Source of the DNA: an uncultured Candidatus Saccharibacteria bacterium
Lineage (GTDB): Bacteria > Patescibacteriota > Saccharimonadia > Saccharimonadales > UBA7683
NCBI GenBank assembly: GCA_964541305.1
Contig: CAZIPE010000001.1
Location: forward strand, 82,350 to 146,349
Length of the DNA stretch: 64,000 bases
Direction of reading: 5' to 3'
Position 1 is the stretch's first letter. Each line of letters begins with the position of its first letter. The notes beneath the pieces were generated by a model. That model was not told the origin of the DNA. It worked only from the letters and a program-made list of their open reading frames with translations, and ran no database searches. This document shows positions 21,050 through 56,529 of this stretch, piece after piece. A program made the position numbers and the translations under genes.

Positions 21050-21637
21050 CTACTGTTTTGCAGGTTTAGTGACAATCTTATCGACTAACCCGTATTTGAG
21101 AGATTCGTCTGATGTCATCCAGAAGTCTCGTTCCATATCTTTATGAATTTTTTCTAGCTTCTGACCAGTGTTTTTAGCCATGATTTGCTCGAGTAGATGC
21201 TTTAATCGAATTGACTCCTTGAGGTCGATTTCTTGGTCGGTAACTTTTCCACGAGTGCCGCTTGAAGGTTGGTGAATCATGACCGTAGCGTTTGGTAAGA
21301 TGAATCGCTTCCCTTTTGTGCCTGAACTGAGCAGGAAAGCAGCAGCTGATGCCTGAACACCAATACCAAATGTTTGAATGTCGTTATTGATATAACTCAT
21401 AGTGTCATAAATGGCGAGGGCATCATAGACACTTCCGCCTGGGCTGTTTATGTACATGTAAATATCTTTTTTAGGATCATCACTCTGTAAAAACAGAAGT
21501 TGGGCCACAATTAAACCGGCGGTGTGTTCGTTTACTTCATCGTGAAGAAAGATGATACGGTCTCTGAGCAGTCGACTGTAAATGTCGAAAGCGCGCTCGC
21601 CCTGTCCTGATGGTTCAATAACGGTTGGTACTAACAT
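21050..21637 (-). CDS. clpP: ATP-dependent Clp protease proteolytic subunit
   Basis: 195 aa, VPTVIEPSGQGERAFDIYSRLL, INSPGGSV, and an active-site Ser/His context. Confidence 0.98.
   Translation of the reverse strand: MLVPTVIEPSGQGERAFDIYSRLLRDRIIFLHDEVNEHTAGLIVAQLLFLQSDDPKKDIYMYINSPGGSVYDALAIYDTMSYINNDIQTFGIGVQASAAAFLLSSGTKGKRFILPNATVMIHQPSSGTRGKVTDQEIDLKESIRLKHLLEQIMAKNTGQKLEKIHKDMERDFWMTSDESLKYGLVDKIVTKPAKQ
21064..21106 (-). repeat. clpP 3'-end copy of the 43-bp imperfect direct repeat
   Basis: Partner of 20277-20319 (36/43 identical, same orientation, 787 bp apart). Confidence 0.8.
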
Positions 21638-21643
21638 GATTCT

Positions 21644-21672
21644 ATACTAGCAATTTAGCACTCAACATTCAA
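21644..21672 (-). promoter_or_regulatory. clpP promoter (apparently leaderless)
   Basis: Minus strand reads TTGAAT (21667-21672), 17 nt, TAGTAT (21644-21649), 6 nt, ATG (21637). No SD. Confidence 0.55.
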
Positions 21673-21681
21673 GATTGCTAA
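21655..21681. promoter_or_regulatory. CIRCE-like inverted repeat (putative HrcA operator)
   Basis: TTAGCACTC-aacattcaa-GATTGCTAA matches the consensus TTAGCACTC-N9-GAGTGCTAA at 17/18 positions, with an exact 9-nt spacer. It overlaps the -35 and spacer of the clpP promoter. Confidence 0.7.
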
Positions 21682-21682
21682 T

Positions 21683-21901
21683 TTAATCCGCTTTAGTGTC
21701 AAAAAATTTTAGACCGTCACCGAGCGCTACGGCCGCACAAAGAGTTCCAGTCACAACTAGGTGTTGATTAATTCCCGCAGCTACAAATACTTTATCCGCT
21801 GATGAGGCTAACAAGCAAAACGCTGTAATTGCCTCAGTTGCAATGCGCTCACGAGGTGTGTGTGCTATCTGCAGAAACTCTTCTTTCATGTCGCGAAGCA
21901 T
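21683..21901 (-). CDS. doubtful small ORF (72 aa) in the tig-clpP spacer
   Basis: This is the only ORF in the 227-bp spacer. It has no SD, no -10 box close to the ATG and no recognisable family, so it may be non-coding. Confidence 0.3.
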   Translation of the reverse strand: MLRDMKEEFLQIAHTPRERIATEAITAFCLLASSADKVFVAAGINQHLVVTGTLCAAVALGDGLKFFDTKAD

Positions 21902-21909
21902 ACTGAAAG

Positions 21910-23190
21910 CTACTTTGTTGCTTGCTGGTAAAGAAACTCGACTGTCTTTTCCGTAAGCATGCGGGAAAGTACTTCACGTTGCATTTCAGGTGTGTCAAAA
22001 TCACCAGCTTGTTGCTGATACTGCGTCTTGTAGAGACTTACTCTTTCGTTGAGCTCAGATTCAGATACAGTCAGCTTTTCTTTTTCAGCAACTTCAGCGA
22101 GCACCATGCCGACCGACACTCTTCGCTCAGCCTGTGGCTTAAGCGCTTTTTCTTTCCACTCATCTTCGTTTTTAAACTTTTCCTGCGCAATATAGTCTTT
22201 AAGGGTAATTCCGCGGTAGGTAAGATTCTGTTTCATATCATCTTGCAAACTAGCCATCTGATCATCAAGAAGTATCTTAGGTAAGGCAAGCTTTGACTTC
22301 TTCACCAACTCTTCAACAATTTCATCTTTTACTTTAGCGACTGCTTCAGACGTTTTTTGTTCAATGAGTTGAGTTTTGATGTCTTTCTTCAAATCATTAA
22401 GTGTTTTGAAGGGCCCAAGCTTTGCAGCAAGTTCATCATCAACTTTTGGGAGCACGACTTGCTTGATTTCCTTAACGGTTACTTTGAAAGTAATTTTAGT
22501 TCCCGCAAGATTCGTTGCATGATAATCTTTTGGAAACGCTAATTTCAAATCTTTCTTATCACCTTTTTTGACACCAACAAGTCCATCTTCAAAGCCGGGT
22601 ATAAAGGTGTTACTTCCCAGATTGAGAGGGTAATTATCACCGCTTGCACCAGCTACTTTTACACCTTTAGCGTCAACACCTTCAAAATCGATCCAAACTT
22701 CATCGCCATTTTCAGCTTTTTTATCAACAGACACCTTTTCTGCGACCCGAGTACGGAGGTTATCAACCACATCCATTACCTCTTTGTCGGTAGCTGTGAC
22801 TTTTGGCGCGCTTTTCTTAATTTTTGTATAATCCCCGAGTTTTATATCTGGCATGATTTCAAGTGCTGCTTCAAATTCTAGTTCAGTAAATGGCACAAAC
22901 TTCTTTACATCTACTTGCGGGGAAGCAAGGGGCTTGAGCAGCTCTTTAATAGCCGCTTCTTTGTAATACTTCTCAATTGCATCTTGCAAGACCTCAACCT
23001 GGAGCTGATTATCATCAATTTGCTTTTCAATAACAGAGGCTGGTGCTTTACCTGGTCGAAAGCCGGCTACTTTGAGCTTCTTACCAAGTTTAGCGACAGT
23101 TGATTTTTTGAGAGACTCGAGTTCTGCACTGCCAACTGATATAACAAGCTTCACTTCGGTTTCTGAGGTGTTGGTACATTTTACATTCAT
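21910..23190 (-). CDS. tig: trigger factor
   Basis: 426 aa with an N-terminal GFRPGKAP ribosome-binding motif. Canonical position upstream of clpP. Confidence 0.96.
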   Translation of the reverse strand: MNVKCTNTSETEVKLVISVGSAELESLKKSTVAKLGKKLKVAGFRPGKAPASVIEKQIDDNQLQVEVLQDAIEKYYKEAAIKELLKPLASPQVDVKKFVPFTELEFEAALEIMPDIKLGDYTKIKKSAPKVTATDKEVMDVVDNLRTRVAEKVSVDKKAENGDEVWIDFEGVDAKGVKVAGASGDNYPLNLGSNTFIPGFEDGLVGVKKGDKKDLKLAFPKDYHATNLAGTKITFKVTVKEIKQVVLPKVDDELAAKLGPFKTLNDLKKDIKTQLIEQKTSEAVAKVKDEIVEELVKKSKLALPKILLDDQMASLQDDMKQNLTYRGITLKDYIAQEKFKNEDEWKEKALKPQAERRVSVGMVLAEVAEKEKLTVSESELNERVSLYKTQYQQQAGDFDTPEMQREVLSRMLTEKTVEFLYQQATK

Positions 23191-34200: not shown

Positions 34201-34302
34201 TATGTTCCTTTGTTTATCAGATTGCTTATTAGTATAACATTGCACGAAAACACGTACAAAATGCTATAATTAATACCATAAGCATGAGGTATAATTAGAG
34301 AT

Positions 34303-36975
34303 ATGGCAAAAACTGTTAAGAAGGGCTCTGTGAGAAAGCCCGCTCAACGTAAGGGTTCTCACTCGGTTTACACTAATCTTGCAACTAAGCGCAAGGTAAA
34401 GGTAGATGCACGCTCCAGACAAAAAGCAGAATTTCTTGCAACACTTCCAAAATCGCGCATAAAGCGTTTCTTTTACCGTATGCATCCGCGACGCTTCTTT
34501 AAATACTGGTTCTCTAAAGAGGGTGGCTTGATGGCACTCAAAATTGGTGGGCTCGGTCTGGCGGCTTTTGTTATTCTTATCCTCACCATTTTCGCAATTT
34601 TCAGAAAAGATTTGGCGCTCGGCCCTGATGAACTCACCAAGCGCGTTCAGAGTCGAACGACAAAATTTTACGACCGAACAGGTCAAGTGCTTTTGTATGA
34701 TCTATATAAGGACCAACAACTGACCTTCGTAAAGCCCGATCAGATCTCAAACAACATGAAATATGCCATGGTGGCTATTGAAGATAAAGACTTCTATAAA
34801 CATGGTGGTTTTGATGTAAAGGGTATAGCGCGCTCTGTCGTAAACAACGCAAGTGGTGGTGGTAAACAAGGCGCCTCAACCATCACTCAGCAGTTGGCGC
34901 GTGTGGTTATTCTTGAAGACAATACTAGTACCGGGCTGGCGGGATACACTCGTAAAATTAAAGAACTCATTCTTTCAATTGAGCTAGAGCGTTCGTATTC
35001 AAAAGATGAGATACTTAACTTCTACCTCAACTCCGTCAGCTTTGGGGGCACAGCGATTGGTGTTGAATCTGCTGCTCAACGTTACTTCAACAAGCCTGCC
35101 AGTAAGTTGAGCATTGCCGAAGCAGCCTACATTGCGTCCATTCCACAATACCCTACGCTTTATGACAAAAATAATCCTAACTTCGATGCCGAACGCACAC
35201 TCGCACGGCAACAAACGGTTATAGATTATATGCGTGACCAGGGCTATATTACTGAAAAAGAAGCTACCGAAGCCAAGGAAGTTAAGATTCTCGCCAAAAT
35301 TAAACCGCTGAAGAATCAACAGAACATCAAAGCCCCTCACTTTGTGAACGAGATTATTAAAGACTTAGAAGGCCAATATGGTGCCGAAAATGTAAGACAA
35401 GGTGGCTGGCGCATTACCACAACACTTGATTGGAACATGCAACAACTTGCAGAAAAATCAATTGCAGATAACATTGCTAACGTTGATGCGCGCAATGGAG
35501 ATAATGCTGCACTTGTTGCCGTTGATGTAAAGACGAATCAAGTACTTGCCATGTCTGGTAGTCGCAACTACACCTTTAAAGGGTACGGCCAAACAAACGC
35601 AGCAACAGCCAAATTACAGCCAGGTTCGAGCCTTAAACCATTTGTGTATACCGAGCTATTTGATCAGGGCTCATACGGACCCGGCAGTGTCATACCGGAC
35701 ACCAGACAGGCCTTTTACGGCATTTATCCAAATAACTTCGATCGAGGCTTTAGAGGAAATATTAGTATACGAAGTGCTCTCGCTGAATCTCGTAACTTAC
35801 CCGCCATGAAAGCTGCACAAATGGTGGGTATGGACAAAGTTATTGAATCGCTTAAGAAGGCTGGTGAAACCGATATCACATGTGGTGTTGAGGGCGAATG
35901 TACCAACCCGTTCTTGGCAATCGGCTCAGGTGACGTTAATCTCGACCAACACACGGCCGCCTACGCCACTATTGCACGTGGATATGAAGCAAAACCTCAA
36001 ACCTCTATTCTTAAAATTGAAAAGCCTAATGGTGAAATTGTTCAGGAATGGAAAGACGCAAAGGGCTCACAAATCTACGGCGACGCCAACCGAGGTGAAC
36101 AGTTACGTTTCCTTATTAGTAGCATACTTTCTGATGATGTCGCGCGAGCTCCAACCTTTGGCTATGGACAACCTTGGTTCAATACACCTGGCGTGAAGAT
36201 GGCCATAAAAACTGGTACAACCGATAACTCGAAAGATGGTTGGATGATGGGCTACTCTCCTAAATTAGCTGTAGGTGTATGGGCTGGCAATCATGACGGC
36301 ACACCAATGGGAACGGCGACCGATCAAAGTACCGGCCCCATTTTTGGTCAGTTCGTAAAGGAAGCTCACGATAAAGTTATGACTAAGCCTCAGTACGGAT
36401 ATAAAGCAAATGAATGGTTCACTCAACCACAGGGTATACAGAAAATGAGAGTGGGGGGAAGGTGGGATATCTTCCAATCTTGGTTTAGAAAACCAAAGGA
36501 AAGTAAAAAGAAATTTACTATGGATAAAGTCTCAAAGAAGCTCGCAACGAGCTGTACACCAGCCGATGCCAAGGAGACTATTGAGGTTACTGTAGTAAGC
36601 GATCCGAATAGACCTGGTAGTGAAGTTATTGGTACGCCTCCCGCAGGCTACGATATTAAGAACAATGATGATGTACACAAATGTGGTGATAAAAAGCCGT
36701 CTGTAGGTGCTATCGGCCTCACAGAGATAGATCCTGATTCCAGAACCTACACTATTACCGCAAGCGTCAGCAAAGGCAAATTTAGTCTCGATAAAGTGGA
36801 ATTTATTGTCAACGGCCAGGTAGTCAGTTCGCAAAATGCAAAAGGTTCAAGTTACTCAACAACCTACAAGTTCCCCAAAGATGGTACTTACACTATCCGA
36901 GTCAGGACGGTTGACGAAGGATACTATCAAGGCGAGAATAGCATTACATCTGTAGTACCTGAAATTGAACCGTAA
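34303..36975 (+). CDS. class A penicillin-binding protein (glycosyltransferase + transpeptidase) with extra C-terminal beta-rich domain
   Basis: 890 aa. Contains a basic N-terminus plus TM segment, GT51 motifs (EDKDFYKHGGFD, RKIKE), and transpeptidase SxxK (GSSLKP), SRN and KTGT motifs. Confidence 0.95.
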   Translation: MAKTVKKGSVRKPAQRKGSHSVYTNLATKRKVKVDARSRQKAEFLATLPKSRIKRFFYRMHPRRFFKYWFSKEGGLMALKIGGLGLAAFVILILTIFAIFRKDLALGPDELTKRVQSRTTKFYDRTGQVLLYDLYKDQQLTFVKPDQISNNMKYAMVAIEDKDFYKHGGFDVKGIARSVVNNASGGGKQGASTITQQLARVVILEDNTSTGLAGYTRKIKELILSIELERSYSKDEILNFYLNSVSFGGTAIGVESAAQRYFNKPASKLSIAEAAYIASIPQYPTLYDKNNPNFDAERTLARQQTVIDYMRDQGYITEKEATEAKEVKILAKIKPLKNQQNIKAPHFVNEIIKDLEGQYGAENVRQGGWRITTTLDWNMQQLAEKSIADNIANVDARNGDNAALVAVDVKTNQVLAMSGSRNYTFKGYGQTNAATAKLQPGSSLKPFVYTELFDQGSYGPGSVIPDTRQAFYGIYPNNFDRGFRGNISIRSALAESRNLPAMKAAQMVGMDKVIESLKKAGETDITCGVEGECTNPFLAIGSGDVNLDQHTAAYATIARGYEAKPQTSILKIEKPNGEIVQEWKDAKGSQIYGDANRGEQLRFLISSILSDDVARAPTFGYGQPWFNTPGVKMAIKTGTTDNSKDGWMMGYSPKLAVGVWAGNHDGTPMGTATDQSTGPIFGQFVKEAHDKVMTKPQYGYKANEWFTQPQGIQKMRVGGRWDIFQSWFRKPKESKKKFTMDKVSKKLATSCTPADAKETIEVTVVSDPNRPGSEVIGTPPAGYDIKNNDDVHKCGDKKPSVGAIGLTEIDPDSRTYTITASVSKGKFSLDKVEFIVNGQVVSSQNAKGSSYSTTYKFPKDGTYTIRVRTVDEGYYQGENSITSVVPEIEP

Positions 36976-36997: not shown

Positions 36998-37708
36998 CTA
37001 CCGTTTTGTATCACGTCGAGGATCACGTAGTGCCTTGGCGAACATCATCCGCCCAGCTGAAGTTTGCAAGTTACGAGTAAACTCGACTGCCACCACCTTC
37101 CCCATCTGATTTGCCGCGTTCTCAACCACTACCATCGTGCCATCATCAAGATAGCCAACACCTTGAGTGCGTTCTTGGCCTTTTTGTACAATCTTAATTT
37201 CAGCTTTTTCACCCGGTAAACGTGCAGGACGAAGATTCTGTGCCAGTTCATTTATATTAAGTACTCGAACACCTTCGATCTCAGCAACTTTAAGTAAATT
37301 ATAGTCGGTGGTATATAAAAGTGAACCTGTCTTTTTTGCTACTTTGACTAGCTTCTCGTCAACACCAGATTCACTCGGCTCGTCATCAGAAATAATTCGG
37401 ATTTCTGCGTGACGACTATCTTGAAGTTCTTGTATTACTTGAAGCCCAAAACGGGCTCGTTCGCGCTTTAAATGATCCGCCTTGTCAGCCAATAGCTGTA
37501 ATTCAGCAATCACAAAACGCGGTACCAGCAGTTCCCCTGGTACGAAGCCTGAGCGGACTACTTCTAGTACTCGCCCATCCATCAGTGCGCTTGTGTCGAG
37601 TAAAACTCGGGAGTTAGCTTTTGGCGCGCGCTTATGTATGAGCACATACAAGATGCTGATTCCGACAATAAGTGATAGTGATGATATGAGTAGCAATAAT
37701 TCTGTCAT
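36998..37708 (-). CDS. membrane-anchored PIN + TRAM domain protein (YacL-like)
   Basis: 236 aa with an N-terminal TM segment, a PIN domain (VLLDTSALMDGR) and a C-terminal TRAM-like OB fold. It lies downstream of radA, as in Firmicutes. Confidence 0.85.
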   Translation of the reverse strand: MTELLLLISSLSLIVGISILYVLIHKRAPKANSRVLLDTSALMDGRVLEVVRSGFVPGELLVPRFVIAELQLLADKADHLKRERARFGLQVIQELQDSRHAEIRIISDDEPSESGVDEKLVKVAKKTGSLLYTTDYNLLKVAEIEGVRVLNINELAQNLRPARLPGEKAEIKIVQKGQERTQGVGYLDDGTMVVVENAANQMGKVVAVEFTRNLQTSAGRMMFAKALRDPRRDTKR

Positions 37709-37718
37709 GTGTTTCCTT

Positions 37719-39062
37719 TTACGATTTTAAATAGGTATTGAGTGCTTCACGTAAGCTCGAAATTGATTGATACGTTGCGAGCGAGGTGTCTGATTTTGGC
37801 CCAATAGCCAGCTTAAAGCCAAGCTGTTTTGCCTCTTTAACTCGCTTTTCTATCTGTGGCACGTGGCGAACTTCACCAGAAAGACCCACTTCTCCGAATA
37901 CTACTGCATCTTGTTTGAGCTTCAAGCCTTTTGCTGCCGATGCAATTGCCATACATACTGCAAGATCCGCTGCCGGTTCAGTTATTTTGATACCGCCTAC
38001 AATGTTGATATACACGTCTTGCTCGCTTAAATCGAGTTTGGTGCGACGCGATAATACCGCAGTAAGTAGCGTCAAGCGGTTCAAATCAAAGCCCGAGGCG
38101 GCGCGCTTAGGGTAGCCAAACGATGTTCTATTCACTAGCGCTTGAACTTCAACCAAAATAGGTCGCGTTCCTTCCATGGCAGCAAGAACAATTGACCCAT
38201 CTGCCACTTGCCTCTCAGCAAGTAATGTGGCAGAGGGATTCTCAACGGGTAGCAATCCACCTTCTTTCATTTCAAATATCCCCACCTCTGAGGTAGAGCC
38301 ATATCTATTTTTAACTGCTCGGAGTGTTTTGAATCCACCGTATCTGTCTCCCTCTAAATTCAGCACCACGTCAACGAGGTGCTCCATCAGCTTAGGCCCA
38401 GCGATAGAGCCTTCTTTTGTGACATGGCCTACTAGAATAAGGGTAGTATTTGTTTGCTTGGCGACTTGCGAAAGAATATGGGTCGAATTGGTAATCTGAC
38501 TTACACTACCAGGAGCTGAAGCAACAGCTTGAGAGGTAATAGTTTGAATTGAATCAACAATAATGAGATCATAGTCCCCACTTAAAATTGTTTGAGCAAT
38601 GTCTTCAGTGCTATTAGAACTAGCGAGCAACACATCTTTATAGTTCTTCGTCACACGCTCAGCTCTGTTACTGACTTGATCAAGCGATTCTTCTCCGCTG
38701 ACGTAAAGTACTTTTTGCTTCTGTGCGATATTTGCTGCAATTTGCACAAGGAGTGTACTCTTGCCTATTCCTGGTTGTCCTGCCATCAATGACACGCTAC
38801 CGCATACAAAACCGCCCCCCAGCACACTATCCACATCACTGATAGAGCTTGAGATACGCCCCTTGGTGGTAGTTTTTGATGAACCCGCAGCCGTTGCCTT
38901 CAAGTGTGCACCACCGAGTCGGGCAGAAGTCAGATTAACGTTTTGTGGAAGTTCTTCAACAAGACTGTTCCAGGCGCCACAGCTCGAGCATCTTCCCGCC
39001 CATTTACTATGTTTGTAGCCACATTCCTGGCAAATAAATTGTGCTGTTTTTTTCGCCATCAT
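37719..39062 (-). CDS. radA: DNA repair protein RadA/Sms
   Basis: 447 aa with an N-terminal CxxC...CxxC zinc finger, a Walker A motif (GQPGIGKST), KNRYG and a Lon-like C-terminal domain. Confidence 0.97.
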   Translation of the reverse strand: MMAKKTAQFICQECGYKHSKWAGRCSSCGAWNSLVEELPQNVNLTSARLGGAHLKATAAGSSKTTTKGRISSSISDVDSVLGGGFVCGSVSLMAGQPGIGKSTLLVQIAANIAQKQKVLYVSGEESLDQVSNRAERVTKNYKDVLLASSNSTEDIAQTILSGDYDLIIVDSIQTITSQAVASAPGSVSQITNSTHILSQVAKQTNTTLILVGHVTKEGSIAGPKLMEHLVDVVLNLEGDRYGGFKTLRAVKNRYGSTSEVGIFEMKEGGLLPVENPSATLLAERQVADGSIVLAAMEGTRPILVEVQALVNRTSFGYPKRAASGFDLNRLTLLTAVLSRRTKLDLSEQDVYINIVGGIKITEPAADLAVCMAIASAAKGLKLKQDAVVFGEVGLSGEVRHVPQIEKRVKEAKQLGFKLAIGPKSDTSLATYQSISSLREALNTYLKS

Positions 39063-39081: not shown

Positions 39082-40041
39082 CTAGCGGAGTGTGGCTTTG
39101 GAACTATCAAGCTGATTAGCTAAATCATTCTCAGAAACTGCTAATTCGTTACGGAGCTTGACGATTGAATTATATTCTGTAATTTTACTACGCAGTTCGG
39201 TCAAGGAAGCGTTATAGGCTTGCACGGCTTGATTAAAGCTGGGGACGCGCTGGTTATATGCACTAGCGCTACCGGACGATCGCAGTGATTCAAGGGTTTT
39301 TTGCAAACTCTCAATCTGAGCGTTTTGTGCTTCAAGCTCTGCATTACCTGAATCAATTTGAGATTTAAGAGTTTTGAGCTGTGCATCGTATGATTCACGC
39401 TTACGCTCGAGGTCCGTAAATTTCTTCTGATATTTCTGAGAATAAGCAACGATAGTAGCCCTATCTTTAAAGTACCTGCTGTAATGTTGTTCAAGTTGAG
39501 GTGAAAGTTTCTTAAGCTCTGTTCCAAAAATTGAGTGCATTTCATTAAGCAGGTCTTCGGTGCCTGCTTTTTTATACAAGGCAAGCGTCTCCTTAACGCG
39601 CGCGTCTGTAACCGTCTGTGCATGCTTTTGCAGTAGTTCGTCTATTTCACGGCGTTCAGCGCTTGAAAGCCGTTCATAAGCAGCGTGGAGCACCTCGTGT
39701 GCCGCAGTGACCTGCTGTACGCCATCAAGCTGTGTGTCATCAACTTCGTACACATAAACACGTTGTTTAGTGTAGCAACCGAGTACGATATTGTTCTGCT
39801 CGAGCCCACTACACGAACTCCTGAACTGCTTAGCTTCCTGAACTTCACTCTGACTTGCTTGATAGAGAAATTCACCCTCATCAGTCAATTCTAACTGTTT
39901 GGCTAATTGTGCTGACTGACTTGAGATATCAGTCGTGTTCACGATATAGAGATCTTTGAGGTGCTGACGATTAGCGTACGCAAGTATGCCACCAGCAATA
40001 AGCACTACTATCACCACCCAGGAAAAGATACGCTTATTCAC
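39082..40041 (-). CDS. hypothetical membrane-anchored HExxH + coiled-coil protein
   Basis: 319 aa with an N-terminal TM segment, HEVLH at AAHEVLHAAY and a long C-terminal coiled coil. The start overlaps the clpC stop. Confidence 0.65.
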   Translation of the reverse strand: MNKRIFSWVVIVVLIAGGILAYANRQHLKDLYIVNTTDISSQSAQLAKQLELTDEGEFLYQASQSEVQEAKQFRSSCSGLEQNNIVLGCYTKQRVYVYEVDDTQLDGVQQVTAAHEVLHAAYERLSSAERREIDELLQKHAQTVTDARVKETLALYKKAGTEDLLNEMHSIFGTELKKLSPQLEQHYSRYFKDRATIVAYSQKYQKKFTDLERKRESYDAQLKTLKSQIDSGNAELEAQNAQIESLQKTLESLRSSGSASAYNQRVPSFNQAVQAYNASLTELRSKITEYNSIVKLRNELAVSENDLANQLDSSKATLR

Positions 40042-42578
40042 TTAGAAATAGTATCCTTTATGCGTGTTTTTTTAGAAGATGATTTTGGCTTATCGCCTGT
40101 CTCCAACTGAAATACCAGTTTTTTCTTTAAGGCCTGTACGGTGATAGTCTGTTCAGTCTTATAGGTGCCAGAGAGCACACCTTCAGCCAGCTGATCTTCA
40201 ACCTCATCTTGCAATACTCTTCGCAGTGATCGTACGCCGTTGTGGGCATCATAACCCTTTTTGAGCAGCCACTTTTTAGCGCTTGGCTGCACTACTAACT
40301 GAAGGGGCGTTGATGTGTGGGCCAGGCGTTGATTGAGATCTTTTATTTGTAGATCAAGTACCTGCCCAGCTTCTTTTTGAGTAAGCGCCCTGAAAACCAC
40401 TATTTTATCGAGACGATTGATTAGTTCGGGTCGCATTACGCCCTTCAGCTCATCAAGCACTCGTTCTTTATTGCTTTCATGCAAATCATCGAGATTATCC
40501 AGATCTTTTTTGGTTTCAGCACGAAACCCAAGTATAGATTCTTTCTGTAAACTCTCAGCTCCTACGTTGCCTGTCATGATTATGACAGTATTAGTGAAAT
40601 CTACACTTCGGCCTTTGGCATCGGTCAAAACACCATCTTCAAGAATCTGAAGGAGCATATTGAAGATATCGGGATGAGCCTTTTCAATTTCATCAAGCAA
40701 TATAACGCTATACGGATTACGTCGCACTTTATCAGTCAGCTGTCCGCCGTCCTCGTAACCAACGTAACCGGCCGGTGCACCAACCAAACGAGAGGCAGTG
40801 TGTCGTTCGCTAAATTCACTCATATCGATTTTAATTAACGCATCTTTTCGCTCGTATAATTCACGAGCCAAAACGCGGGCTAGCTCAGTCTTGCCGACCC
40901 CTGTTGGGCCTAGGAATATAAAAGAACCAATCGGTCGTTTTTTATCACTCATGCCAAGCCGATTGCGCCTTAAGGCACGAGCAACTGATGTGATTGCTTC
41001 TTTTTGACCGATGACATAACGAGAAAGACTCTTCTCAAGCTTAAGTAAGTAATTTGCTTCTTTTTTTATCACTTTGTGCGCGGGAATGCCGGTCATTAGT
41101 TCAATCGTCTCAGCAAGGTCTGCTTCAGAAAGCGTAAGTTTAGCTCGACCGCGTCCTCGCTGTTTTTCAAGTGTTTTTTCAAGCTCTGCCAGCTTTGTTT
41201 TATGTCGTGCTGCCGCCTCAAAGTTTTCATGATCAACCGATTCTGCCAGACGGTGCCGTATGAGCTTAATTTCTTTAAGTAATTTTCGCTGACTCTCGGG
41301 GGTTTTGCCTCGCGAGATTCTAATATGAGCGGCAGATTCGTCTAAAAGATCCAGAGCTTTGTCGGGCATGAATCGCTCGCTCAAATACCGATCGCTCAAC
41401 TCTACGGCCTGATCAATTACCTCATCAGTAATTGCCACACTATGGTGCTCTTCGTAGTGCTTCTTGAGTCCTTTAAGAATCTCGCTGGTTTGTCTGAGTG
41501 TGGGCGGGTGGACCATAACAGTTTGGAAGCGACGCTCAAGAGCGCTATCTTTTTCGATACTCTTACGATATTCCTCAATGGTCGTTGCGCCAATAACTCG
41601 TACACTTCCTCGTGCCAAAACAGGTTTAAGCATATTTGCTGCATCCATAGAACCCTCGGCTGCACCTGCACCAACAAGCAAGTGTAGTTCATCAATAAAC
41701 AGCAGTACCGTCGGGTCATTGCTGATTTCATGCATTAACGCCTTTAAGCGCTCTTCAAATTCACCGCGGTACTTTGTGCCTGCAATTAAGCCAGCAAGGT
41801 CGAGCATAATAACTCTTTTGTCGAGCAGTTTTTCTGGCACCTGCTCTTTTGCAATTCGCTGAGCGAGGCCTTCCGCAATAGCCGTTTTACCCACACCAGG
41901 CTCACCAATAAGCACCGGGTTATTCTTAGTGCGCCGGCTCAATATCGTAATAACACGACGTAATTCTTCTTCTCGACCGATAACAGGATCGAGCTTGTTG
42001 GCACGCGCCTCTTCAGTCAGATCCGTTCCAAAATATTCTAGTGCACTCTTGCCTTTTTTCCGTTTCACCTTTGATGCGTTAGCTGGTTGATTAGGTTGCA
42101 GATCTTCAAACTCATATCGTTGTTGCTGGAGATACTGTTCGAGATCTACAACTAATTCTTCTACATTAATACTCATATCGCGGAGCAGTACGTTAGCCCG
42201 AGCGTTCTTTTGAATTAAGATTCCGTATAAAATATGCTCGGTACCACAGAAGTCTTGGTTAAATTCTTTAGCAATTTCCCAGCTTGTACGAAGCGTCAGC
42301 TTTGCCGCTTCACTCAAACCCTTGCTACCGACACTTATAACGATAGATTTAGGAGTTAACTTCAAAGCCGTGCGAGCACGATCAATTGTCACACCAGATG
42401 TTTCAAGTAGCTTCGCTCCGACAGAACTTTCTTGGCTGAGCACTCCAAGAAGTATGTGTTCCGTTCCTACATAGGCGCTACCCATACTCCGGGCAATTCC
42501 TTCGGCATTTCGAAGAGACAACCGAGCATTTTCAGTCAGTCGTTTGAGGTAATCCTGAAAGTCTGAACTTGCGTGCAT
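40038..42578 (-). CDS. clpC: ATP-dependent Clp protease ATP-binding subunit ClpC
   Basis: 846 aa with a double Clp_N repeat and two AAA+ modules ([16 protein letters not shown]). Confidence 0.97.
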
Positions 42579-42656
42579 GTTCTAATTATACTCCCTATCG
42601 CCCATTGTTTCGTTAGTATTGAAAATTTTACGATATAAATTTATAGTCACTCCTAC

Positions 42657-42685
42657 AGTATAGTAAATTAGCACTCTCGATACAA
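42657..42685 (-). promoter_or_regulatory. clpC promoter
   Basis: Minus strand reads TTGTAT (42680-42685), 17 nt, TATACT (42657-42662). The leader is roughly 75 nt and carries an AGGGAG SD. Confidence 0.55.
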
Positions 42686-42694
42686 GACTGCTAA
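42668..42694. promoter_or_regulatory. CIRCE-like inverted repeat (putative HrcA operator)
   Basis: TTAGCACTC-tcgatacaa-GACTGCTAA matches the CIRCE consensus at 17/18 positions, with the single mismatch at the same position as the clpP copy. It overlaps the -35 and spacer of the clpC promoter and the stop codon of the upstream ORF. Confidence 0.7.
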
Positions 42695-43224
42695 TCTAAT
42701 CGCTCTGTGAAATCAGGTTGCGCAGTGAATTTTGGTTCATTTACTCGTTGACCGGTAAACCCATCTCTCGGATGGAAGTATTTGTCCTGAAAGTAGTCTC
42801 TTTTAAGACCGTCGAATGCGCAGAGTATATCACCCTGTAATTCCCCTTGTGTAAAATAACTCATAGCTGTCTCTATCTGATCAAGCGTCGATCTATGGTC
42901 ACGTTCTGTTTCGTTCCGCACCTCATCGAGTGCATAAAAAAATGATCGAGCACGTGCATCTGGGCCAAGCCTGTCAGGTTCATCAGAATACATCACTTCT
43001 AGAACTACCGGTACGATATCAACCAGTTCATTGTCGGGATTATCTTGCATAGCAATATCGAGTATTGCACGGTGTAGATGTCCGCCCCAGTTGTCTCTTA
43101 GTTTCGGCCACACCCACTCTTCTTCCACAACTTGGCGCATAAAGTCTCTACACTCACCAAACTTTACAAAAGCAACTGGGCTGCAGTTTCGCTCTCTCCA
43201 AAGTGAGACTGGATATTCCGTCAT
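42691..43224 (-). CDS. hypothetical protein, 177 aa
   Basis: Uninterrupted acidic, Trp-rich ORF between nusA and clpC. I recognise no family. Confidence 0.6.
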   Translation of the reverse strand: MTEYPVSLWRERNCSPVAFVKFGECRDFMRQVVEEEWVWPKLRDNWGGHLHRAILDIAMQDNPDNELVDIVPVVLEVMYSDEPDRLGPDARARSFFYALDEVRNETERDHRSTLDQIETAMSYFTQGELQGDILCAFDGLKRDYFQDKYFHPRDGFTGQRVNEPKFTAQPDFTERLD

Positions 43225-43230
43225 ATCTAT

Positions 43231-44457
43231 CTACTCTTCGTGGGACTCGATGGCGTCAATTAAGCCGGCCTCGATGTCGTCGCGTCGCTTTGGTTTTGTA
43301 GACTTCTTCTCGGCTGGTTTTGAAGGCGCTGGAGCAGGCTTAGGAGCTTCAACTTCAACAGGTTTTTCAGCTGGCTTTTCTTCAACTACTTCAACAACGG
43401 GAGCTGGAGCAGGAGTTGCTGATTCAATGTCGAGCTCATAGCCTGTAAGCTTGCTAGCAAGTCGTACGTTTTGACCACCCTTACCAATAGCAATTGAAAG
43501 CTGATCTTGTGGGACAAGCACTCGGGCATGTTTACCAGATTCGTTAATTTCAACACGAGTTACTTCTGTTGGTGAAAGTGCGTTTTTAATGTACGTTTCA
43601 GAGTCTTCAGCAAATGTGATGATGTCAATCTTCTCCTGTTCACCAATCTCCTGCATAACAGCCTGTACGCGAGTACCGTGACCACCAACGAAGGTGCCCA
43701 CTGGGTCAACACCCGGAACGGTAGAAGCAACTGCCAGCTTGGTGCGCATACCTGCTTGACGTGCGATACCTTTAATTTCAACAGCACCACTTTCCATTTC
43801 TGGCACTTCTTGTCGGAAAAGGAACTCAATGAACTTATCGTTAGCTCGCGAAAGCACCAGCTGAGGACCTCTGAATTCGCGTTCAACATCTTTTAGAAAT
43901 ACTTTTACACGTGCACCGACGCCGTAGTATTCACCAGGTATCTGTTCGCTAGCAGGTAGAATCCCCACTGCTTTACCAAGATCAATACGAACTATGCGAG
44001 GCTCAACACGTTGGACAGTACCAACAAGCACGGTACCGATCTTATCTTCATATTCGTTCATGATGATCTCACGTTCTGCTTCACGTAGACGTTGTAAGAT
44101 GACCTGCTTCGCTGTCTGAGCTGCAACACGACCAAAAGTAGTAGGATGCTCGGTAATTTCAATCACATCACCGACTTTCGCATCTTTTTTATGTGCTTTT
44201 GCCTGCTCAACTGTCATTTGCTGAGCATCGTTTTCAACCGCATCACCTTCGACTACATCGTAGCTTGTAACGGCCGTCATGTCGCCGGTGTGATGATTTA
44301 GTATTACTTTTACATTCTGCTCTCGTTCACCGTAATCTTTGCGGTACGCAGCTGCTAGCGCCTGCTCGACAGACTCGGCTACGATATCTTCAGGAAGATT
44401 CTTTTCTTCAGCGATTTGTTTAATTGCTGTTATTAATTGTTTTATTTGTAGTTCCAT
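43231..44457 (-). CDS. nusA: transcription termination/antitermination factor NusA (with Pro/Ala/Lys-rich C-terminal tail)
   Basis: 408 aa with an N-terminal domain, S1 and two KH domains (IGKGGQNVRLASKLTG). The last ~70 aa are low-complexity. Confidence 0.97.
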   Translation of the reverse strand: MELQIKQLITAIKQIAEEKNLPEDIVAESVEQALAAAYRKDYGEREQNVKVILNHHTGDMTAVTSYDVVEGDAVENDAQQMTVEQAKAHKKDAKVGDVIEITEHPTTFGRVAAQTAKQVILQRLREAEREIIMNEYEDKIGTVLVGTVQRVEPRIVRIDLGKAVGILPASEQIPGEYYGVGARVKVFLKDVEREFRGPQLVLSRANDKFIEFLFRQEVPEMESGAVEIKGIARQAGMRTKLAVASTVPGVDPVGTFVGGHGTRVQAVMQEIGEQEKIDIITFAEDSETYIKNALSPTEVTRVEINESGKHARVLVPQDQLSIAIGKGGQNVRLASKLTGYELDIESATPAPAPVVEVVEEKPAEKPVEVEAPKPAPAPSKPAEKKSTKPKRRDDIEAGLIDAIESHEE

Positions 44458-47592: not shown

Positions 47593-47931
47593 TTACGTTA
47601 AGCTTGGCTCAAAGCGGGCTACAACAAAGTCTGAAGCTACCTCTACTCCTGAAAGCTCCCAATCACCTTCGTAGTTATGCTCTTGCACCCAGCACTGAGC
47701 AGCAAACTGCATTTGATGTAGTTTTTTGGGTGTAATATATTCTAACCCACCACCTTGATTTTCCGTACTTCTATATTTCACTTCAACAAAATAGGCTACA
47801 TTATCTCTCCTCGCAATGATATCAATCTCACACATTCGTGTGCGCCAATTTCTTTCAATAATTGCAAACCCATTTTCAATTAAATAGTCGCACGCAGAAG
47901 ATTCTGCCTGATTACCAACCTCGGTGCTCAC
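47593..47931 (-). CDS. yraN: YraN-family (UPF0102) endonuclease-like protein
   Basis: 112 aa, ACDYLIENGFAIIERNWRTRMCEIDIIA...YFVEVKYR. Lies downstream of rnhB, as in many bacteria. Confidence 0.85.
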   Translation of the reverse strand: MSTEVGNQAESSACDYLIENGFAIIERNWRTRMCEIDIIARRDNVAYFVEVKYRSTENQGGGLEYITPKKLHQMQFAAQCWVQEHNYEGDWELSGVEVASDFVVARFEPSLT

Positions 47932-48485
47932 AACAAGGCCTTAATTGGTTTGTATGATTGTCTGTGAATCTCAGTTACACCGTGCTCCTGCAGTGCACTA
48001 CGATGCAATCGTGTTCCGTAGCCAACATGTTTTTCAAAAGAATAGTTCGGGTATTTTACGGCAATTTCTTTCATGTAACTGTCGCGTGCCACCTTAGCGA
48101 CAATTGAAGCGGCAGACACAGCAGGTACGGTGTCATCAGCTTTAATCAAAGCAGTAGTACGAGGTATGTCAGAAAGAAAGTTATAGTTACCATCAATTAC
48201 TATTTCAATATCATAATAGTCAATTTGTTCGAGCGCCCTTCGCATGGCCAGTCTCACGCTTTCGGTCAGACCGAGAACGTCAACCTCTTTTGCATCAACC
48301 CAGCCTACGCCAATTGCGTGGGCATTTTTTTGAATCTCTACATTGAGTAGGTTTCGCTTACGTTCAGATAACTTTTTAGAATCTTTCAACCCATTAATCG
48401 CCGTCACGTCATCCATTAGTACTGCCGAGGCCACTAGAGGCCCCGCCCAACAACCTCGCCCCACTTCATCAATGCCTATAATCAT
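47928..48485 (-). CDS. rnhB: ribonuclease HII
   Basis: 185 aa, IIGIDEVGRGCWAGPLV..., DSKKLS. Confidence 0.95.
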   Translation of the reverse strand: MIIGIDEVGRGCWAGPLVASAVLMDDVTAINGLKDSKKLSERKRNLLNVEIQKNAHAIGVGWVDAKEVDVLGLTESVRLAMRRALEQIDYYDIEIVIDGNYNFLSDIPRTTALIKADDTVPAVSAASIVAKVARDSYMKEIAVKYPNYSFEKHVGYGTRLHRSALQEHGVTEIHRQSYKPIKALL

Positions 48486-48515
48486 AGGTTAGATTATAGC
48501 AATAGTGAGACTACT

Positions 48516-50642: not shown

Positions 50643-52259
50643 TTATATCACGCGATTTATTTCTTCGAGAGTAGTGATACCCTGGATACACTTTAAAATA
50701 CCGTCTTGGTACATGGTGAGCATACCTTGCTGTTGCGCTTGAGCTTCAATTTGCGGTGCTGAGGGGATATTGTAGGGGTCTTTTAAGAGCGCTTGAATTT
50801 CGGGCGTGATTATCAGCTCTTCTAGAACGGTCACCCGACCTCTATAACCGAATTGGTTCTCTTCTGACTTACCTGGTTTGTATAGTTTTACTGTAGCAAG
50901 ATCAGGTTTTTCAACTGAATCCGGCAAATCTTTCAGTGAATCTTCAAGATGTTTTTTAAGCGCGGCATCAGGCTCATATTCTATTTTTGTTGCGTCATCA
51001 AGTCGACGCACGAGTCGCTGACTTATAATCAACTTTATTGCTGATATAAGTATCGGGTTTTGCCCAATCATATCAATCATGCGCGTAAACGCCTCTGCAG
51101 CAGAACCGGCGTGAAAGGTGGAAAGTACAAGATGACCCGTAATCGATGCCTGGAGGGCGGTACGAGCCGTGTCAACGTCTCTAATTTCACCGACCATGAC
51201 AACATCGGGGTCAAGTCGTAGAACCGCTCGAAGCTTGTTAGCAAAACTATCGCCTTCACGAGTGGAAACCGGAATCTGGCTCATGCCGTCCAGCCCATAT
51301 TCAACAGGATCCTCAAGTGTCAGAATCTTTCTTTCTGAGGTGTTTAAACGTTGAAGAATTGAATACAATGTCGTCGTTTTACCCGAACCAGTCGGACCCA
51401 CCATCAAGACCATGCCTCGAGGATGTGAAATCACTTCATCAATCGGCACACGCTCGCGTTCAGTTAAACCAAGGTTATCGAGATTCAAAAGCTCTGTGTC
51501 CATGTTAAACAAACGTAGTACTGCGTCCTGGCCGTACAGCGTAGGCACCGTTTCAATACGCATGTTTAGCGTTTTTGTGGTGCCATCAGCACCCGTTATC
51601 TCTTGACTCAAATGTCCCGTCTGGGCATCAGGTGCAGAGGTTGATATATTTGCTTTTACGGCTATCGATTGTTGAATTTGGCGATACTTCATATGGGTAA
51701 CAACCGCAATAAGGTGCAAGGCCCCATCAATACGCAGCCGCAAACGTACTCCCATTTTTGCTGTTTCAAAGTGAATATCTGAGGCAGTCAGCTTATCGGC
51801 CTGATTTATGACGTATTCCAAGATGTCGTCAGATTTAACACCTTCGAGTGTCTCTGATACTTTTTTGAGGTTCTCACTTGCACCTTCAGTTTTAATACTG
51901 ATGTCATCGTACACCACCTCTTTGGGCGGGTCGTGACGTAGCATAAATTCTTTGTAGCCACTTTTTGAGATCATGACAAATTCAATAATCTTGTCAATAA
52001 ACCTCTCGCGTAACTCTCTGAGCGTTTGTTGCGGGGTGTCTATGGTTATTGCAAAGGTATATCCCGTACCGGTGTCATAGAGTGGGATTAGTTTTTTTTC
52101 GTACATCTCTTCAATCGTTAGCACATTCCGAACCAAAGGGGTGTCTTTAAGCGTACGGCTATCAACGTACTGAAGTTTGAGCAGTGTCGCACGTTGTCTC
52201 GTGCTACCCTCATCGGTCTCGCGAAACTTGACCTGGTCGCCTGAAGTATTAAAAGCCAT
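50643..52259 (-). CDS. pilB: type IV pilus / type II secretion assembly ATPase (GspE/PilB family)
   Basis: 538 aa with Walker A (GPTGSGKTTT), Asp and His boxes, and an N-terminal GSPII_E-like domain. Confidence 0.9.
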   Translation of the reverse strand: MAFNTSGDQVKFRETDEGSTRQRATLLKLQYVDSRTLKDTPLVRNVLTIEEMYEKKLIPLYDTGTGYTFAITIDTPQQTLRELRERFIDKIIEFVMISKSGYKEFMLRHDPPKEVVYDDISIKTEGASENLKKVSETLEGVKSDDILEYVINQADKLTASDIHFETAKMGVRLRLRIDGALHLIAVVTHMKYRQIQQSIAVKANISTSAPDAQTGHLSQEITGADGTTKTLNMRIETVPTLYGQDAVLRLFNMDTELLNLDNLGLTERERVPIDEVISHPRGMVLMVGPTGSGKTTTLYSILQRLNTSERKILTLEDPVEYGLDGMSQIPVSTREGDSFANKLRAVLRLDPDVVMVGEIRDVDTARTALQASITGHLVLSTFHAGSAAEAFTRMIDMIGQNPILISAIKLIISQRLVRRLDDATKIEYEPDAALKKHLEDSLKDLPDSVEKPDLATVKLYKPGKSEENQFGYRGRVTVLEELIITPEIQALLKDPYNIPSAPQIEAQAQQQGMLTMYQDGILKCIQGITTLEEINRVI

Positions 52260-52330
52260 AACCGTTATTATACTGTACTGTGGCGTATCTCGTCATCCCT
52301 AAAGTACAAAAGTCGCGTATACTGATGCAC

Positions 52331-55800: not shown

Positions 55801-56498
55801 GCCTCTTGATCTTCATGTTGCAAGTAATGTGCATCACACGTCACGACAACGGGAATATCTAACTTTTTGGCAAGTTCAAATAGCTTTTTATTAACTTTCA
55901 CCTGTTCATCCCAGCGGCTCGGTGCATCAGGATGGCCATGGTCTTGTACTTCAATGTAGTAGCGGTCTCCAAACACCTTCTTGTACCAAGTGGCTGTCTC
56001 ATAGGCTTGTGCATCTTGATTGTTGCGTAGATAATCCCCGATTTCACCACCTATACAACCCGAGAGAACTATTAGACCTTCGTTATATTTTTCAAGTAAA
56101 TCATGGTCAATCCGTGGTTTAAAATAGAAACCATCCAGATTAGCAATAGTGGAAAGTCGCATTAGGTTTTGATACCCCTGATTGTTCATGGCTAGTAATA
56201 TAAGGTGATATCGCGCCTTATCGACACCAGGTTCTTTGTCGAGATGTGTTCGGTTAGCAACGTAGGTTTCCATACCGATAATTGGCTTCATATCTCGATC
56301 TTTTGCTGCCTTGTAAAACTCAATCGCACCCGAAAGCGTACCGTGGTCGGTAATAGCAACGCTTTCCATGCCCATTACCTTCACGCCATCAAGCATTTGT
56401 GGTACTTTTTGCAGACCATCAAGAAGACTATAGTGGGTATGATTATGCAAATGAACATACTCACTTGGTTTAATTTTTACTCCATCAGCACTCATCAT
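52839..56498 (-). CDS. dnaE: DNA polymerase III alpha subunit
   Basis: 1219 aa with an N-terminal PHP domain (HLHNHTHYSLLDG), polymerase core, OB fold, and a Lys/Pro-rich linker plus an extra C-terminal domain. Confidence 0.98.
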   Translation of the reverse strand: MMSADGVKIKPSEYVHLHNHTHYSLLDGLQKVPQMLDGVKVMGMESVAITDHGTLSGAIEFYKAAKDRDMKPIIGMETYVANRTHLDKEPGVDKARYHLILLAMNNQGYQNLMRLSTIANLDGFYFKPRIDHDLLEKYNEGLIVLSGCIGGEIGDYLRNNQDAQAYETATWYKKVFGDRYYIEVQDHGHPDAPSRWDEQVKVNKKLFELAKKLDIPVVVTCDAHYLQHEDQEAHEILLCVQTGAFLSDQNRMSLKEFELHVTDPKEIIARWADEHPDVITNTKAIADRCNVELDLGKILIPKFPVPKGEDEKSYLHKLVYRGLAWRYGGVEEARSKRITQEEAMQTLPKDILERATYELEVIDKMGFNGYFLIVSDFINWGKDQGIVFGPGRGSAAGSIVAYSTRITELDPLKYDLLFERFLNPDRISMPDIDIDIQDTRRNEVIEYCAEKYGRDRVANIVTFGTMAARAAIRDVARVLQVPYAEADRIAKLIPPPVQGRHIPLAESIKNDKDLKAEYENNATTKQVIDLAVRLEGTIRSHGVHAAGVVIAPDDIVKFVPLEMAQKGVVSTQYAMGPVEDLGLLKMDFLGLSNLTILRNALRIIKRVYGSAIDLDEIPLDDEKAFELFQKGDTTGVFQLESAGMKRYLRQLKPTVFEDIVAMVALYRPGPMQFIDEFISRKHGEKKITYPHASMENSLINTYGILVYQEQVMQISKEVCGFTGGQADTLRKAIGKKNAQLMAKMKDQMIEGGEKHSGISRDLMERFWKQLEDFAAYCFNKSHAACYGLIAYWTAYLKAHYPDAFMAALMTSDADDIDRLSIEITECQHMGLEVLQPDVNESFVEFAVVPDKKQIRFGMSAIKNVGTGAVEEIIATREEGGTFKDINDFVTRVDTRKVNRKVWESLIKSGGFDSLGKSRGDLLYNLDGILALGSKIHKEKETNQADIFGGLDDAAPSVAPQFTFETAPEQSSEREMLLWERELLGLYLSSHPLDPYGAYFEENAVPITSLTSAMDNKSTTIGGVINSVRNITTKNGSKMAFVKLEDKSGDMELIVFPKSYDAVQDSLVQDKIVVVKGKINCKDRDGGLSDEVKLMVDDLKEITQEDVDAYKPTGKKPKAPKPKKPEEKKEMKQPVQSPVVSPTHASQPKLYVHLKDPQDHEKLLSLKKLAGEHPGDHELILVIGEDSKKTALKMPFSITTDTDLQDKLKDVFQPECIVFK

Positions 56499-56500
56499 CT

Positions 56501-56521
56501 TCTAGTATAGCGTATACTAGA
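56501..56521. promoter_or_regulatory. palindrome formed by two back-to-back -10 boxes (dnaE / recF)
   Basis: TCTAGTATA-gcg-TATACTAGA has perfect 9-bp arms. The minus-strand TATACT (56504-56509) serves dnaE and the plus-strand TATACT (56513-56518) serves recF. Confidence 0.6.
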
Positions 56522-56529
56522 GTTCTGAT

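Follow-up and report, generated by a model that had tools for sequence, protein, structure and literature searches.

A CIRCE-type operator around the -35 box of the clpC promoter in a Saccharibacteria genome and its predicted control by a truncated HrcA

The Firmicute CtsR class III regulon comprises ctsR-mcsA-mcsB-clpC, clpP and clpE, and its heat-sensitive repressor occludes the clpC and clpP promoters. The 64-kb stretch of DNA that we analysed (hereafter, the window) carries both clpC and clpP, and an earlier note, made from the sequence alone, had pointed to a CIRCE-type inverted repeat at the clpC promoter and to the lack of ctsR-mcsA-mcsB upstream of the gene. The question raised by this locus is which repressor would govern its Clp genes, and how an operator in this position would act on clpC transcription.

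The clpC locus and its lineage

The clpC gene (40038..42578, minus strand; assigned from Pfam, NCBIfam and its sequence) encodes a protein of 846 amino acids that combines the features by which a ClpC-type Hsp100 is recognised: two Clp_N repeats, two AAA+ modules, a short middle domain and, in D2, a ClpP-docking loop of the (I/L/V)G(F/L) type, here ILGF at residues 682-685, past the D2 sensor-1 region. The protein fell short of every NCBIfam equivalog cutoff, the top match being ClpB at 868 bits against a cutoff of 1232. Its identity with ClpC from Candidatus Saccharibacteria MAGs is 70-81%, against about 45% with ClpC of other phyla, and the window shares with these MAGs the succession of a divergent M1 peptidase gene, nusA, a variably present ORF, clpC, a 319-aa HExxH ORF, radA, a TRAM-domain gene and a PBP gene. 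Identity and synteny place the window in a Saccharibacterium, a member of the CPR, and not in a Firmicute.

As that note had claimed, ctsR-mcsA-mcsB does not lie directly upstream of clpC, either in the window or in its relatives; in the window, nusA (43231..44457, minus strand; Pfam) and a 177-aa ORF, orf177 (42691..43224, minus strand), stand there instead. The missing CtsR is the norm for the phylum Saccharibacteria and not a loss in a Firmicute. A search for the CtsR box RGTCAAANANRGTCAAA, allowing up to 3 mismatches, returned 8 matches against 9.5 expected, with none at the clpC or clpP promoter (the match at 40993 lies inside the clpC coding sequence). Neither Pfam nor NCBIfam assigned orf177 to a family, and it had been described as an unrelated orphan preceding clpC. 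Its position and its want of a family stood, but its status as a strict orphan did not: homologues occupy the same position in two relatives (54% identity in L001, 3392-3898; 43% in L010, 3456-3944) and are missing from the others. On this comparison, orf177 is a variable insertion between nusA and clpC, not a unique orphan.

Downstream of clpC, the 319-aa ORF (39082..40041, minus strand) begins with a GTG that overlaps the clpC stop codon, and it is therefore probably co-transcribed with clpC. The encoded protein combines a hydrophobic N-terminal segment with an invariant AHExLH motif and a long coiled-coil-like tail, and the HExxH was retained in 15 of 15 sequences, that is, in the window ORF and in 14 orthologues downstream of clpC (L001-L007, L009, L010, L016-L018, L021 and L022). 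Matches in Pfam and NCBIfam were sub-threshold only, and of coiled-coil type; the clpC operon may here encode a metalloprotease-like partner anchored in the membrane. Next come radA (37719..39062, minus strand) and, in a YacL-like position, the gene for a TRAM-domain protein (36998..37708, minus strand), both assigned from Pfam and synteny. The note's order of clpC, HExxH ORF, radA and PIN/TRAM gene was thus recovered except for the PIN domain, of which Pfam saw none in the 36998..37708 product at E<=0.001. This downstream order is like that of Firmicutes, with clpC ... radA ... TRAM-domain gene in B. subtilis.

The operator and promoter boxes upstream of clpC and clpP

Plus-strand positions 42668-42694 read TTAGCACTC TCGATACAA GACTGCTAA, a 17/18 match, with one mismatch, to the CIRCE consensus TTAGCACTC-N9-GAGTGCTAA. 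In gene orientation, on the minus strand, the promoter region reads TTAGCAgTC-TTGTATCGA-GAGTGCTAA-tttac-TATACT. A putative -35 hexamer, TTGTAT (42680..42685), falls within the spacer of the repeat, and a -10 hexamer, TATACT (42657..42662), follows 5 nt past the right arm, at a -35/-10 spacing of 17 nt, such that the operator overlaps both the -35 box and the spacer of this predicted promoter, P1. From the end of the -10 box to the clpC ATG (42578) there are 78 nt; transcription is predicted to start near 42650, which would give a 5' leader of about 72 nt (42579..42650). P1 escaped a consensus promoter scan, because its TTGTAT agrees with TTGACA at no more than three of six positions. The TAG stop codon of orf177 (42691-42693) supplies nucleotides 2-4 of the distal arm. 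On the plus strand, opposite clpC, a TTGAAA-17-TATAGT pair (42619-42647) is aimed into the CIRCE and the 3' end of orf177; one such pair was found against 0.8 expected, as by chance.

We searched the whole 64-kb window for the CIRCE consensus with up to 3 mismatches and compared the result with shuffles. Exactly two sites were found, the one at clpC and a sister site at clpP, each with a single mismatch, against a shuffle expectation of 0.05 sites; two sites occurred in none of 100 shuffles. The third-ranked CIRCE-like site had 4 mismatches and lay within coding sequence. When up to 6 mismatches were allowed, the 15 sites observed were at the shuffle level of 16.7, and the clpC and clpP sites are therefore clear outliers. 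The mismatch of both copies falls at position 7 of the promoter-distal arm, as a G at clpC and an A at clpP, and in both it interrupts the palindrome.

The sister operator (21655..21681, minus strand; also 17/18) precedes clpP (21050..21637, minus strand; Pfam and NCBIfam), which lies downstream of tig (21910-23190). The clpP promoter reads TTAGCAaTC TTGAATGTT GAGTGCTAA attgc TAGTAT agaatc ATG, with a -35 box TTGAAT at 21672-21667, a -10 box TAGTAT at 21649-21644 and the ATG 6 nt further on, a distance from which the clpP mRNA is predicted to be leaderless. The clpC and clpP promoter regions align over about 30 nt. On all of these particulars (the extent of the match to CIRCE, the arm position of the mismatch shared with clpP, the overlap with TTGTAT-17-TATACT, the alignment of the two promoters and the orf177 stop codon inside the operator arm) the claims made in the earlier note were borne out.

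Conservation of the operator and a truncated HrcA in relatives

A lack of the repeat in relatives that keep clpC had been named in the note as a ground for refutation, and we looked for it in 80 clpC loci of about 10 kb each, taking one genome per species; the outcome did not refute the claim. A CIRCE with up to 2 mismatches was present upstream of clpC in 22 of 22 loci of the Saccharibacteria/Patescibacteria type (L001-L022). The other 58 clpC loci, which belong to other phyla and include Planctomycetota, Nitrospirota, Dehalococcoidia and Clostridia, had none anywhere in their roughly 10 kb. The end of the CIRCE is 16-132 nt from the clpC ATG in 17 of the 22; in the remaining five (L011-L015) the CIRCE lies upstream of nusA, and nusA adjoins a Shine-Dalgarno-led clpC. 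The clpP CIRCE is likewise conserved, in L016-L018, where the order is clpC, coiled-coil ORF, CIRCE and clpP, and in L146 and L182, metagenome contigs that are syntenic with the tig-clpP region of the window and encode a ClpP about 70% identical.

Four of the loci with an operator upstream of nusA, which form one Saccharibacteria clade (L011, 2508-2705; L012; L014; L015, 1156-1300), have, after the CIRCE promoter of nusA-clpC, a leader of about 80-170 nt with a hairpin and a T-run (for example, ...cagcgagcggcttttttag). This leader may function as an attenuator, or it may yield a short RNA under CIRCE control; Rfam gave no match on L011, L014 or L015.

Aligning 28 distinct Saccharibacteria CIRCE sites on the repeat revealed near-invariant arms and unconserved flanks. 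Positions 1-3 of the spacer read TTG (as TTGACA, TTGCAT or TTGTAT), and a TAnnnT box lies about 5 nt past the right arm; nearly all related loci have a -10-like box at this offset. In L005, L006, L019, L021 and L011-L014, where the TTG occupies another place in the spacer, the -10 box moves along with it. This conserved joint register argues that the operator is built around the -35 box, and a protein seated on both arms would cover the -35 box and the greater part of the -35/-10 spacer. In 11 of the 17 loci with the operator directly before clpC, and at all clpP sites, the ATG begins only 5-8 nt (mostly 6-8 nt) past the -10 box, and leaderless mRNAs are therefore predicted for these genes. 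Long leaders of 60-132 nt are found in the window, L001, L004 and L007-L009.

No hrcA was found in the 64-kb window, by Pfam and NCBIfam scans of its ORFs of HrcA-like length, or in the clpC loci, and tblastn with an approximate B. subtilis HrcA query gave no match in the window or in L001-L080; hrcA therefore does not lie near clpC. We also scanned metagenome contigs for the exact pattern TTAGCACTCTTG-N6-GAGTGCTAA. The genes downstream of these sites encode at least 25 HrcA-like proteins, as well as DnaK, DnaJ, GroES, HtpG, ClpC/B-like proteins and ClpP. Many of the HrcA-like proteins are short, at 217-295 aa against about 340 aa, and the Saccharibacteria form has about 235 aa. The short form retains the HrcA winged helix (PF03444) but, of PF01628, just the C-terminal half (profile positions of about 106-215), and it scores 186.7 bits on TIGR00331, whose cutoff is 197.2; falling just under this cutoff, it is labelled at NCBI only as a 'transcriptional regulator'. 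A protein search returned thousands of short HrcA-like proteins, among which P0014, P0049 and P0078 carry the NCBI label Candidatus Saccharibacteria. Loci encoding the truncated form include L201, L158, L178, L151, L155, L087, L102 and other metagenome loci, on Saccharibacteria and other CPR-like contigs.

The gene for P0049 (L201, 6001-6708) heads the series hrcA-grpE-(70 aa)-dnaK-...-dnaJ. In front of it stands a perfect CIRCE whose spacer contains TTGACA, and a second CIRCE, with 3 mismatches, abuts the hrcA start codon. Such a tandem pair at the Saccharibacteria hrcA operon, with the perfect copy over the -35 box and the degenerate copy at the start codon, was seen in L201 (5923-5999) and in L178 (545-608). 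The N-terminus of P0049 aligns with residues 16-92 of T. maritima HrcA (1STZ) at an E value of 5e-19, and in a profile alignment of the short protein with a canonical 344-aa HrcA the N-terminal 75 and the C-terminal 85 residues match while about 100 central residues are missing. An AlphaFold model of the short HrcA was of low confidence (pLDDT 62.8); a fold search with it, which counts as weak support, ranked 1STZ first, followed by GAF domains. Judged by the alignments, Saccharibacteria have an HrcA homologue with a DNA-binding domain fitting the canonical CIRCE, and from the relatives we infer an hrcA in this particular genome. Among the retrieved metagenome loci, a -10 box in register with the spacer TTG accompanied the short HrcA in 14 of 14 complete loci and the long HrcA in 0 of 9. 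Over all sites this register was seen in 55 of 119, against 4.5% by chance.

The metagenome contigs also held perfect CIRCE sites upstream of genes for small zinc-ribbon proteins with an FmdB-like N-terminus (YEY.C..C), in L092, L097, L157 and L187, all of them contigs from outside the Saccharibacteria. These genes are a possible further family of HrcA targets beyond the phylum.

Predicted regulation of clpC and its relation to known systems

We consider it very probable that the clpC repeat is a functional HrcA operator (CIRCE) set around the -35 box of a sigma-70-type promoter, P1, in a Saccharibacteria genome, with repression by HrcA relieved by stress. What the analysis shows is the sequence itself, its occurrence beyond chance, its conservation across the phylum in a constant register with the promoter boxes, and an HrcA homologue encoded behind the same operator in Saccharibacteria; HrcA binding, repression, heat induction and the transcription start are what we infer. 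The lack of hrcA in the 64-kb window would also suit an operator bound by some regulator other than HrcA, or a functionless chance palindrome, but either is highly improbable given that the arms are the canonical CIRCE consensus, that a site expected 0.05 times per window is conserved in 22 of 22 loci, and that Saccharibacteria have an HrcA homologue alignable to 1STZ which is itself encoded behind the same element. The chance palindrome was rejected on the conservation of the arm sequence across relatives. A role exerted mainly at the RNA level, with the repeat forming a 3' hairpin that terminates or stabilises the nusA-orf177 transcript, would be in keeping with the folding of the region (-16.8 kcal/mol, z -3.4) and with the orf177 stop codon inside the arm. 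We nonetheless regard it as quite unlikely. No U-tract follows the stem (UUUACUAUACU); it is the arm sequence, and not mere pairing, that is conserved, with no compensatory changes even when loci whose ClpC is about 50% identical are included; the same element precedes clpP, hrcA and clpC regardless of the gene upstream; and the conserved spacer TTG and downstream -10 box would be needless for an RNA hairpin. The conserved arm sequence and the missing U-tract led us to reject the pure-terminator reading, while an RNA-level role is possible as a side effect of the repeat.

A different concern arises close to the gene. A second TATAAT (42585..42590, minus strand), preceded by GGGAG (42591-42595), lies 6 nt before the clpC ATG, the start region reading ggagTATAATtagaacATG. 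L004, L009 and L001 share this GGAG-TAtAaT block at about 6 nt from the ATG, and L008 keeps a TATAAT at 9 nt, while the leader sequence is divergent among relatives except at its two ends. No significant structure was detected in the clpC leader (z -0.42), and Rfam found one tRNA only in the window and no family in the leader. At 12 nt, the GGAG is more distant from the ATG than in those window genes that are led by a Shine-Dalgarno sequence. Many first genes in the window, such as the PBP gene at 34303 (gaggTATAATtagagatATG), a pilB-like gene and recF, lack a Shine-Dalgarno sequence and carry a -10-like box (TAnnnT) that begins at -12 to -14, and leaderless transcription appears to be common in this genome. 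Examples of such boxes lie in 34290-34302, 47928-48500, 50643-52280 and 56499-56529; internal ribosomal-protein genes carry GGAG. There are also two divergent gene pairs with very short intergenic regions and overlapping -10 boxes, at 52259/52280 (20 nt) and at 56498/56530 (31 nt, with the near-palindrome CTAGTATAGCGTATACTAG).

We see about an even chance that the proximal TATAAT belongs to a second, HrcA-independent leaderless promoter, P2, which would provide ClpC at a basal level, while a stress-inducible transcript with a leader would come from P1 in addition. Given the possible P2, HrcA control of clpC may be partial in this genome. It is rather unlikely, in our judgement, that P2 dominates, so that most clpC mRNA would be leaderless and come from a promoter some 80 nt beyond the operator and out of reach of HrcA, with the CIRCE providing a stress increment or being largely vestigial. 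The abundance of first genes with a TAnnnT box and no Shine-Dalgarno sequence, the conservation of the GGAG-TAtAaT block within a diverging leader and the distance of the GGAG from the ATG all speak for such dominance. P2 has, however, no recognisable -35 box and no TG extension; the CIRCE and P1 are intact in every long-leader relative, which argues for their continued use; and for 11 of 17 relatives the only leaderless promoter is the CIRCE promoter itself.

If the clpC repeat is the HrcA operator that we favour, a dimer of the truncated HrcA (about 235 aa) would bind both CIRCE arms and exclude RNA polymerase from P1, because the -35 box is enclosed between the arms, within the 9-nt spacer, and most of the -35/-10 spacer is taken up by the right arm. 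As unfolded proteins accumulate, HrcA would lose activity, as in the GroEL-titration model of HrcA control in Bacillus subtilis (Mogk et al. 1997, as cited in PMC6305308 and PMC7737663). P1 would then transcribe clpC, the translationally coupled HExxH ORF and probably radA, and the same module, at clpP here and at hrcA-grpE-dnaK-dnaJ in relatives, would give a parallel response. With this one module at clpC, clpP and the hrcA operon, a single repressor would cover what Firmicutes split between CtsR and HrcA, and HrcA probably controls chaperones and Clp proteases across the phylum. In one comparison of the TM7x transcriptome, clpB (a ClpC-like gene) and clpP rise together (bioRxiv 10.1101/2022.03.25.485537), which lends weak support to shared HrcA control.

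We put forward a broader proposal tentatively, as plausible though short of probable. Saccharibacteria, and probably much of the CPR, may run their whole cytosolic proteostasis network (hrcA-grpE-dnaK-dnaJ, clpC with the HExxH membrane protein, and clpP, with groES, dnaJ, htpG and small heat-shock proteins as members in other CPR lineages) from a single minimal module, consisting of a truncated HrcA without the roughly 100 central residues and a CIRCE with the -35 box in its spacer, often on a leaderless promoter. The perfect co-occurrence of short HrcA and promoter-embedded operator among the retrieved metagenome loci suggests a co-evolved variant, which could be mechanistically distinct, for example in its mode of dimerisation or of chaperone sensing.

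The predicted system is like the HrcA/CIRCE system of B. subtilis in its 9-bp inverted repeat with a 9-nt spacer, its putative HrcA-family repressor with a conserved winged helix and the predicted autoregulation of hrcA-grpE-dnaK-dnaJ, placed behind a CIRCE. The B. subtilis CIRCE is located downstream of the transcription start site. In Saccharibacteria, by contrast, the operator is centred on the -35 box, the targets include clpC and clpP, many of the mRNAs are predicted to be leaderless, and HrcA has about 100 aa fewer and scores slightly under the NCBIfam HrcA cutoff. The Firmicute CtsR regulon is a functional analogue of the Saccharibacteria clpC/clpP module but relies on another repressor family and on an operator that is a heptad direct repeat. 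The clpP gene of Streptococcus salivarius is under dual CtsR and HrcA control (Chastanet & Msadek 2003, PMC145324, as cited in PMC6305308); there too a CIRCE lies upstream of clpP, but it acts with CtsR, whereas in our case no CtsR boxes or ctsR are nearby and clpC is also a target.

The closest precedent is the Mycoplasma HrcA regulon, with clpB and lon. According to PMC7737663, the M. pneumoniae regulon comprises dnaK, dnaJ, groESL, clpB, lon, pepA and pip, with a CIRCE between tig and lon. The two cases are alike in having a reduced genome without CtsR, one HrcA over chaperone and AAA+ disaggregase/protease genes, and a tig-CIRCE-protease order; they differ in that the targets are ClpB and Lon there and ClpC and ClpP here, in an unrelated phylum. 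The passages of that paper that we consulted mention neither a -35-in-spacer design nor a truncated HrcA. In the window, the resemblance to tig-CIRCE-lon lies in tig-CIRCE-clpP, with positions 21682-21909 between tig and the operator.

Control of clp genes by HrcA is thus already known elsewhere (clpP in S. salivarius; clpB and lon in Mollicutes), and the Saccharibacteria arrangement is a lineage-specific variant of a well-known system. Our search of a library of openly available papers found no paper linking HrcA or CIRCE to Saccharibacteria, Patescibacteria or CPR biology, and nothing relevant on leaderless transcription in Saccharibacteria. What appears to be new is the predicted phylum-wide HrcA control of clpC and clpP in Saccharibacteria, an operator with the -35 box inside it, in many cases on leaderless promoters, and the truncated HrcA.

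Gene regulation in the CPR is almost uncharted, and the CIRCE sites give a sequence-defined, predicted regulon with one repressor, one operator and a fixed promoter geometry for chaperones and Clp proteolysis alike. Genetic tools for Saccharibacteria now exist through natural transformation (PMC10633639), and the CIRCE promoter is predicted to be a stress-inducible promoter/operator module for these bacteria. In the truncated HrcA, dimerisation and sensing may differ from those of the textbook protein. Saccharibacteria would represent a second, independent case, after the Mollicutes, of regulon consolidation under HrcA in reduced genomes.
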